Source of the DNA: Styela clava | Lineage: Eukaryota | NCBI RefSeq assembly: GCF_964204865.1 | Contig: NC_135253.1 | Location: 15,376,001-15,440,000 of the forward strand | Direction of reading: 5' to 3' | DNA length: 64,000 bases | Part shown: positions 10,263 to 13,338 of the stretch, piece by piece | Numbering within the stretch: the stretch's first letter is position 1 | Layout of the letters: each line of letters begins with the position of its first letter | Notes under the pieces: model-generated | What the model saw: only the letters and a program-made list of their open reading frames with translations | Told to the model about the DNA's origin: nothing | The model's database searches: none | Made by a program: the position numbers and the translations under genes

Positions 10263-12389
10263 ATGAGTGCTGACAACCATAATTCAGGTATGTTCCTATT
10301 AATTGTGGCCAATTGCAATTGAAAACACGTATCGGACTTTTGAGTTATACTTACTTATAGCCTATTACGTTTAATAACAGAAAGTTCATACTTTTATGTT
10401 CCTATCCTATCATTCTTTTCAACAATGATATTACGGAATAGCTATGCTGAACTTTTGCAAAAGAAAGCAACACCGTGATGAAGGCATATCAGAGTTTGCG
10501 AAGGAGTTGCAGATGCTGGCAGGCTCATGTACGTTTATTGACGAAAGTGACATTTTACGACAATTTATACTTGGATTGAAGTCGAAATCCATCTCTAATC
10601 ATTTGGACTCAAACCAAGGAAATCTGACTTTTCATATGGCTGTGCAACTTGCGACAGCTATGGAAAAAGTTACGATTGACAATAGCGCAAGCGGTATGTT
10701 CATATATATATATATATATGTAAAAAAAACAGTAGGCCTATACCTCGAAAGGATTATAATGATGTTTTCCCATAGGTCTCCTCTTATCATTACCTGAAAC
10801 GTTAGCAAGCCTATTTTACTTGTCCCAGTGAAATACTCGAGTCACTCATAATGTCGAACAATTCCTGTTTTCCTACAGTAAACTGGTTATTTTCATAATT
10901 TTTCAGATACTTCGGGTTACAGACGTACCTCCGGTGAGATTTTGGAAATTTAGATATTGTTTGTGGTACTTTAGAACAAATATCAAGTAAATTTGTAATA
11001 GTGAACCACTTTAGGAAATATTTAATAGTAGGCCTAAATATAAATGCCGCATTTTTGTAAATGCAGAGTTGGTTTTCCGTGGGGGGATAAAAGCAACTAA
11101 TTCAGTGTACGGTTCCTCGACTGCTGTAGTCTACAATGACCATCGGCCCAACACAGGTGAATAAATGAGTATATATATATAATAAGAATATTTTTAATAG
11201 GGCAGCGATTTAATAAACATACTTGCGCCTAAATATTGAGCATATGACATCAATAATGACAATTCCAAGATTACCGTTTTAAATAAATTATCTTGAAACG
11301 TCGAACTTTGTATTTGTGAAATAGTTTTGATATCTTTCACTACCATACATTAATACTGGTATGAAACAGTTTAATTCATTTCTTTAAGATACTAAAAGTG
11401 CAACATTTATTTACGATGCTTTTCTAACGTTGTCTCTCACTAGCATCGATCTCTGAATTCCAATTTTATCGGAATTGGTCAGCTCAAATTGTACTTTGAG
11501 AAAAAAAAATCATGTAAAACCTAATTTGAAACTCAACATATATATTCAATGAATTTCAGATCTTCCAAAAGTCAGGCTACCGGAGTTTTTCACTCGGCGC
11601 CATAATAGTAAGTATCCATTTGGCTATAAACCTATACCTGATAACCTAGGTACAATTATGGTTTATGGATGATATGGTCTATATAGGGAGCGGTTATTCG
11701 ATTACATCAAAAACTGAAAAATTATTCGGTTTTATGAGTTATCTGATGTATCTTAAACACAATGAAGTATTATTTTAACAGTGATTTCTTGCCAGCATTG
11801 TTTCTTCTTTTCAAGGAAATATCTTGCTTTTAGTCTGTAATAAGCGCTATTCAAACAATTAATATTGATTCTGATACCTCCAGCTTCAGAGAAGTAAAAT
11901 ACATATGTGGGAAATGTTCTGGATTATTTTATTATAGGATTATCGATTTTTACAATGACCAATATTTATATAAAACGGAATGAGTAAATATTTTTGAAAC
12001 GCCTCAGTGTACCTAATTCAAATAAGTAGGCCTACAGGATTTCTGATCGTTATGAAATGTAGTAAATTCCAATTGGGAAATAGCCTACTTCATTCCTTTG
12101 AACTCAAGTAATTTAAATGTAAATATGAGTAAACTTTAGCTTGAAGAGTATTTATAAGCAAATATTTAAAAACTTTATATCGAAAAGCTATTATCTGGAT
12201 ATCGAAGCAGAACTTGGTGTTGTAATGCTTTGACTAACATTATTGTTAAGCGATGGTTGGTAATGATTAAACATTTGATATGCAACAATGTTAGTTCACA
12301 GGAGAGTCGACATGATGCAGATGCCGGATTCGAATCAAGCATTTGTGGATGTTGAGAATGTTGTGGTTGTCAACAATTTGAAACCTTAA
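10263..12389 (+). CDS. Predicted 7-exon gene (191 aa) containing an LTR-retrotransposon Gag-like segment
   Basis: Exons 10263-10287, 10442-10693, 10907-10933, 11067-11156, 11560-11607, 11938-11983, 12302-12389 all have GT-AG boundaries and keep one frame. Exon 2 FCKRKQHRDEGISEFAKELQMLAGSCTF...RQFILGL...LTFHMAVQLATAME follows the Gypsy-type Gag pattern. AATAAA at 12601. Confidence 0.6.
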
Positions 12390-13338
12390 AAACGTCGGAT
12401 TTCACCAAAGCTGACTAATTTAAAAATTATGCCAGCTACCTGGCAGATATGTTAATTTTATAATTTGTTTAGTCTGATTTTGGGAATTGTATATGCATAA
12501 TGGAACTACAAATATTGCGGACATTCGCAGACACGAGACTACCGACTGGTTATTCGAGCTAAGACTTCAAATTCTGTTACATTAAATAAGCCCGATTACC
12601 AATAAAGGGCAGTTCTTGATCACACGTGGTTTTACAGTAATTTTAATCATACACCATCGCCATTCTATTGGAGCCACCGAATTATCGCAACCTTTGAAAC
12701 AAGCATAAGAATGACATAATTGTGCACCTAAATGATAGTTGGCGCATCGTGCTTTTTGTTAGAAAACTGCTTGCAACCGCATTATCGATTATCCAACGTG
12801 GCTTCGCAGGCTTGTCATCCACGGGTACCAAGACATTGTGCGGGATAGTTCACGAAATCTCGGGCCGTTTTTCACCAACATCCAATACCATGCATCTCAA
12901 CCAAAAGGCGGGAGATTATTTATTAACTTCGCAAAAATTTAACATGTCAGTAAAGCATGGATCTCTCTATATATATATTTTTTGCGACAAACCAGAAGTC
13001 CTCGCGAAGTAGTTTATTCTAACGTTTTGATTGGCATTTATGAATCGCCGTTAACAAGCTATAGCATCGACAAGCTGACGAGAACAAAAGCCTTCTCGTG
13101 GTGGCCCGTCGGGCATATTCAAATTTTACTTTATGCATAAAATACCCCACTTCTGCTTCGACGTAGCGAAAATATAATTCCAGTATTGTCTGTCGGCAAG
13201 TTCTCAAAACAAATGTTGCTGCACAAATTATCATTTATATATATACATAAAGTAAATACTTCTCTGAATGAATTTAATATTTCACAATTGGGGGACTGGA
13301 GACTTAAAACTCGTACCACTGAACATAAGACCAATACA

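Follow-up and report, generated by a model that had tools for sequence, protein, structure and literature searches.

A six-exon gene of the sea squirt Styela clava carries a Ty3/gypsy Gag capsid C-terminal domain in one symmetric exon: a probable lineage-specific domestication

The window, a stretch of 64,000 nucleotides of the Styela clava genome, holds a small gene on the plus strand that is built of six exons and five introns, all of phase 1, and encodes a product of 178 amino acids. Exon 1 (10151..10287) comprises the 5′ UTR, codons 1-8 and one further base (coding part 10263-10287, ATG at 10263), and reaches upstream to at least 10151. Exon 2 (10442..10693; 252 nt, phase 1-1), bordered by tag on the acceptor side and gtatgt on the donor side, encodes the C-terminal domain (CTD) of a Ty3/gypsy Gag capsid protein. 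Three small exons follow, each again of phase 1-1: exon 3 (10907..10933, 27 nt), exon 4 (11067..11156, 90 nt) and exon 5 (11560..11607, 48 nt), the last two of which encode part of an orphan tail. Exon 6 (12295..12863) contributes 95 coding nucleotides and the stop codon TAA (12387-12389), followed by a 3′ UTR that extends to at least ~12863. The AATAAA at 12601-12606, inside this UTR, is a candidate poly(A) signal, and transcript contigs of two runs, X1 and X2, continue beyond it to 12830 and 12863. The GC content of the exons is 41-52%, against 28-32% for the introns. The six-exon translation is identical to RefSeq XP_039247606.2 (Styela clava LOC120325614, ‘uncharacterized protein’), which also starts in exon 1, and the products of neighbouring genes fall into clusters with Styela clava proteins. 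The start codon, the stop ending at 12389, the AATAAA and the symmetric exon 2 had all been named in a preliminary description of the locus, and each is present.

Four of the five introns are spliced out in RNA-like contigs, two of these in both X1 and X2, which are separate studies; both runs are classed as RNA by our tool’s guess only, not by record, and their contig depth is low. GT..AG joints were found for intron 1 (one contig of X1, which spans 10151-10285, enters exon 2 and stops inside it at 10632), intron 3 (X1), intron 4 (X1 and X2) and the connection 11607>12295 (X1 and X2). The joint between exons 3 and 4 comes from X1 and that between exons 4 and 5 from both runs, exon 5 has joints on both sides in both runs, and exon 3 also shows a loose end at 10904 in X1. 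The DNA-like run X8 contains none of the four. Splicing of intron 2 (10694-10906) was not seen in any contig examined and rests on two RefSeq models, both of which connect exon 2 to exon 3 in frame. The junction support asked of the earlier model is thus present for every intron except that between exons 2 and 3.

The direct connection of 11607 to 12295 changes the gene model. The seven exons counted previously become six, since the joint, found in X1 and X2, eliminates a 46-nt exon; the last exon begins 7 nt earlier than the 88-nt version proposed before, and the reading frame is unchanged. The small exons of 27, 90 and 48 nt stand. Several AG..GT segments of 3n + 1 nt within intron 5 preserve the frame by chance. 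The locus is a genuine spliced host gene of which the earlier description was partly wrong.

Residues ~10-92 of the product, encoded by exon 2, are a Ty3/gypsy Gag capsid CTD that includes the residues of the major homology region, as had been suspected from its capsid-like appearance. A profile of 24 Gag sequences matches exon 2 with 80 bits (E = 7e-26), and the match is limited to 10444-10683: it opens with the exon’s first codon and stops 10 nt short of the exon’s 3′ end. The same profile finds no match in the introns, and a profile search of 9700-12400 returned no relic of a capsid N-terminal domain (NTD) or zinc knuckle. The Gag homology begins and ends at the splice sites of exon 2. When exon 2 was searched against 1.84 billion proteins, 47 matches at E ≤ 1e-3 were obtained, with at most 46% identity; 18 of the 19 matches that were scanned bear Retrotrans_gag, and the remaining one, an ankyrin-repeat protein, is a false match. 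Residues R7, Q9, E13, C29 and G44 are invariant in 28 aligned sequences, and the Atlas feature neighbours of exon 2 include Retrotrans_gag clusters. Pfam PF03732 gives no match to exon 2 itself, and Pfam lists no Gag domain in XP_039247606.2.

A structural model of exon 2 (pLDDT 92.5, pTM 0.82), which was built on the supplied Gag alignment and leans on it, superimposes best onto the CTD of the MLV capsid (Z = 11.6, r.m.s.d. = 1.6 over 75 residues). High scores were also obtained for PEG10 (Z = 10.6) and Copia (Z = 10.5), and MOAP1, PNMA2, dArc and Drt2 are matched too. The first 36 rows of this comparison are all capsid proteins, and unrelated rows score Z = 5.4 or lower. Foldseek E-values are weak (best 0.03), yet the listed rows are again all capsid proteins; the proposed fold check of exon 2 points to capsid CTDs as the top matches. 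SCAN structures are absent among the fold matches listed. A fold of the whole protein predicted from the single sequence is uninformative (pLDDT 31), and a dimer prediction of exon 2 in which the alignment was not used (score 0.11, mark 0.32) provides no evidence either way.

Neither exon 2 nor the 2.8-kb region around it has a second DNA copy in the 377-Mb genome in a search that skips very common words, and protein searches of the genome with exons 2, 4 and 6 returned no paralogue. Two repeats flank the gene, at 8621..8953 and 13339..13767. Read as direct repeats, they were considered as a pair of LTRs and rejected: both are MITEs of one family with terminal inverted repeats (17 nt in the upstream copy), and each has its own, different 8-bp target duplication, matching at 7/8 positions in both cases. 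ORFs for protease or pol are missing around the gene, the nearest piece of gypsy pol being an RNase H/integrase relic on the minus strand at 58401-59438. The flanks thus hold no LTR, NTD, zinc knuckle, protease or pol, and exon 2 is single-copy, in agreement with the original statement that LTRs, protease and pol are lacking nearby and against a place within a multi-copy, degraded or intact LTR element. At 10026-10136, 400 nt upstream of exon 2, a stretch that contains a stop and a run of TA weakly resembles a Gag CTD; its score was reached by 2 of 100 shuffles at the protein level and by 227 of 500 at the DNA level, which makes it borderline, and it is possibly a decayed relic or a chance resemblance. 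Also upstream of the gene, 9089-9423 and 9442-9775 form a near-perfect 335-bp tandem duplication (99.4%).

The genome carries many young Gag copies of several families. Their identity to exon 2 is 24-39% overall (30-39% for the candidates that were scored, 53 of 53), and over at least 55 residues the best value is 37% among 67 in-genome Gag loci, a set in which some entries are the same place twice and which includes 50 of the 150 matches from one search. None of these loci besides exon 2 is an intact match to the CTD only: the others reach into the N-terminal domain or the zinc knuckle (by profile, with six loci inspected by eye), and one of the loci, L076, is broken. A further 20 Gag matches, most of which have short open frames, proved to be ordinary pieces of elements. 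In a tree, most in-genome copies fall into families with near-zero tips, and exon 2 sits on a branch of 0.48 with no in-genome sister, in a placement that is without support (84/49).

Against a profile from which it was left out, exon 2 obtains 86 bits, within the range of four in-genome elements (80-116) and of left-out members (59-123); this score is favoured by the choice of profile members, which were selected for their similarity to exon 2. The flanks of exon 2 score below 0, compared with 67-88 bits upstream and 18-27 bits downstream in intact parents. We simulated neutral decay of a whole element under assumed rates. At each of 14 settings, 0 of 180 replicates gave a CTD of at least 75 bits together with both flanks below 5 bits. 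Uniform decay of a whole element is excluded; the result does not reach the case of a young, cleanly cut piece whose family the assembly lacks. Purifying selection has likely preserved the domain as the remainder of the transposon disappeared.

Polymorphism bears mostly on the downstream exons. Four of the five listed coding differences are synonymous (P 0.01-0.03, with 10 more differences unlisted), and all five scored differences are in exons 3-6, none in exon 2. In X8, 2 of 26 listed differences are coding and both are synonymous, where ~4 non-synonymous ones would be expected (P 0.018, rising to 0.43 if three unlisted differences are all non-synonymous); the lack of differences in exon 2 in X8 alone has P 0.15. 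These data say little on exon 2, which is present in two other samples, X1 and X8. At 12295-12567, one X1 haplotype shows 15 differences in 273 letters, of which 12 fall in the 3′ UTR, and it has an A>V change in common with an older RefSeq model.

The 86-residue tail has no relative detected in the protein and in-genome searches, and the sole protein match of exon 4 is the gene’s own RefSeq record. Paralogues and orthologues, which the preliminary description had called for, were searched for and none was found: protein and metagenome collections, whose tunicate coverage is unknown, gave no orthologue in another species, a weak result as clustering hid the gene’s own record in three of these searches. 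Neutral evolution is disfavoured by the simulation but keeps some probability.

Several known systems offer a comparison. The SCAN domain of vertebrate SCAN zinc-finger proteins and SCAND1 is, like exon 2, a captured Ty3/gypsy capsid CTD in a single exon, as described in PMC3257199, and is used for dimerisation and held under purifying selection according to bioRxiv 2025.03.03.638093. The Styela gene differs in having no Pfam SCAN match (none at E ≤ 1), zinc fingers or KRAB, and its nearest in-genome elements have the protease followed by reverse transcriptase, whereas Gmr1-like elements have the order protease-integrase-RT. Because the gene is a tunicate one, the capture is independent of SCAN, as had been proposed; the gene is single-copy and annotated, and its capsid segment is a single symmetric exon. 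With yeast Drt2 and Ty1 p22/p18 the gene has in common a host-held CTD without NTD (PMC10951436), and structures of this group are also fold matches (9rxy, Z = 8.8, r.m.s.d. = 2.3 over 76 residues; 7nlg and 7nli were matched too). Drt2 and p22, however, are of Ty1/copia origin and have a closely related active target subfamily, whereas the Styela gene is of Ty3/gypsy origin and has five introns and an orphan tail. A close active target of the Drt2 type was not found in the genome, the best Gag being 39% identical and the best over at least 55 residues 37% (67 loci, including 50 of 150 matches).

Capsid-forming domesticated Gags keep both capsid lobes. Arc/dArc, PNMA and PEG10/RTL stem from Ty3/gypsy Gag, as does exon 2, and the CTD fold matches PEG10, MOAP1, PNMA2 and dArc; the Styela gene differs from them in having the C-lobe only and no zinc knuckle, so that, from general Gag architecture, capsid building or RNA packaging by this protein alone would not be expected. 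In its anatomy the gene resembles SCAN or Drt2. It belongs to neither, because it has no Pfam SCAN match and its origin is Ty3/gypsy rather than Ty1.

Taken together, the locus is a probable lineage-specific Gag domestication, found in one species so far, of a kind known from SCAN and yeast Drt2. The reading that we favour, with about even confidence, is that of a six-exon sea-squirt gene in which the CTD of exon 2 is kept by purifying selection as a predicted self-association module carrying the 86-residue orphan tail. An old insertion would have acquired splice sites around its CTD; the remaining element would then have decayed or been deleted, with the CTD exon held in frame with the small phase-1 exons. 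Since SCAN, Ty1 p18/Drt2 and Gag CTDs dimerise, we infer by analogy that exon 2 may pair two copies of the protein, which could show their tails jointly to a partner.

The domain might instead serve, like yeast Drt2, as a restriction factor: by binding the Gag of a cognate Ty3/gypsy family, the lone CTD would keep particles from assembling, an effect that may have led to the loss of the parent family. The anatomy is that of Drt2/p22, a CTD without NTD (PMC10951436), structures of Drt2/p22 are among the fold matches, exon 2 retains the family-conserved residues, and the many young Gag copies of several families in the genome are consistent with such a role. However, the best-studied CTD restriction factors are subfamily-specific, p18m and Drt2m highly so (PMC12530519), and the in-genome Gags found are 24-39% identical to exon 2. 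The spliced tail of 86 residues, with its mostly synonymous variation, would be superfluous for poisoning, and contig depth is low. We regard this role as unlikely, and the interference with retrotransposon capsids that was suggested earlier is weakened, as no element above 39% identity was found.

The 5′ ends of the transcript suggest another arrangement. An X1 contig that contains exons 3-6 starts with 28 nt of a repeat joined to the acceptor of exon 3 in place of exon 2, and this contig is the deeper one (7.45, compared with 3.1). The 28 nt end exactly at the AG/GTAAG donor of the repeat. The repeat (e.g. L021-L025) is dispersed, with 377 genomic matches, a 328-bp tandem unit and a perfect AG/GTAAG donor, and many loci may draw leaders or exons from it. 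Neither the window nor the 120 kb upstream contains a copy, which implies that the leader comes either from an allele-specific insertion or from trans-splicing. In tunicates, trans-splicing is a frequent event with a preference for the first acceptor (PMC11155486), unlike the case here, as the exon 3 acceptor is not the first of the gene. The leader has no Rfam match and, by eye, no T4-6 Sm-type site after the donor, was not found in the literature searched, and differs from the Ciona spliced leader printed in PMC7986045; a pattern search for SL RNA genes gave fewer matches than its control. An allele-specific insertion is the simpler reading than a canonical spliced leader. The older RefSeq model, XP_039247606.1, also lacks the 5′ part: it has 105 residues starting from Met74, with one A>V change, so that Met1-His73 are missing and nearly all of the capsid domain is omitted. 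It starts there despite Met10 and Met33 upstream in the same exon and keeps the 3′ end of exon 2; the Met74 start could mean that the allele is broken, that the assembly is in error here or that the 5′ end is short.

Exons 3-6 could accordingly be imagined as an older or separate small transcript with variable 5′ ends, to which the capsid exon is attached optionally or as a polymorphism, with little function of its own. The distant leader joined to exon 3, the exon 2-3 junction unseen in RNA-like contigs, the omission of Met1-His73 from the older model and the location of every scored synonymous change in exons 3-6 all fit such a loose union. Against it, exons 2 and 3 are connected in frame in both RefSeq versions, and exon 2 is intact while its flanks are erased. 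Moreover, the form with the leader offers no in-frame start codon upstream of the last exon, and the frame of the tail therefore needs exons 1-2 for its translation. We consider two loosely joined units rather unlikely. It is more doubtful still that the gene is an animal counterpart of Drt2, an intron-split lone CTD that would poison Ty3/gypsy assembly, has outlived its parent family and can be switched off by the repeat leader bypassing the capsid exon.

A neutral and recent exonisation, in which a short Gag fragment of a family missing from the assembly was spliced by chance into a protein without function, appears the least probable. In its favour, searches gave no orthologue, contig depth is low, the score of exon 2 is like that of active elements, which would be expected of a young fragment, and in 13-32% of simulated cases an intact frame of at least 75 bits is still there at up to 5% neutral divergence. 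Against it, it requires a Gag fragment whose two cuts coincide with the domain edges, phase-matched splice sites and no sibling in 377 Mb; exon 2 is found in X1 and X8, the older RefSeq model contains its 3′ end, and variation in the frame downstream is mostly synonymous.

If the domestication that we favour is true, it would represent a second independent capture of a capsid CTD in one exon, in the sister group of the vertebrates, and the SCAN route would be repeatable. The gene would also be a test case for whether such exons start as transposon poisons and later turn into dimerisation modules. Its value is limited by the fact that it is known from one species so far and that its function is predicted only. 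A survey of 2,011 eukaryote proteomes (PMC8321522) reports only 14 deep co-options of gag, seven of them in animals, and takes as evidence for a co-opted gag shared synteny or a host-like phylogeny, selection and expression. The Styela gene is not among these 14; the main text of the survey leaves tunicates unmentioned, and its species table includes Ciona and Oikopleura without Styela. We found no published description of the gene in a search that lies largely outside subscription journals.

Other features of the window were noted in passing. Three close, intron-poor genes on the same strand form an operon-like group at 2489-7466; they include TANGO2, a 396-residue protein without Pfam match, and a gene that, from its motif, we take to encode a Mrp/NUBP-like ATPase. 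A segmental duplication (25152-30981 and 42701-48654) carries two intact intronless genes for mitochondrial alanyl-tRNA synthetase, 94% identical in DNA, and an inverted duplication (35537-38045 and 40236-42701) surrounds a 1.65-kb palindrome (38104-39752). A frameshifted pair of transposase-like ORFs, presumably hAT-like by its motifs, is located on the minus strand at 49363-51487.

The protein searches also returned a cluster of genes from the wasp Polistes exclamans (KAI4476xxx; P0001 and P0003-P0008), each with several tandem Gag capsid units and no protease or pol, for which nothing was found in the literature searched. Six of the seven named genes are on a contig of identical size (527,567 bases). 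Seven further proteins (P0010, P0011, P0014, P0015, P0018, P0020 and P0033) are similar to these capsid-repeat proteins. The Polistes set looks like an amplified family of domesticated capsid repeats.
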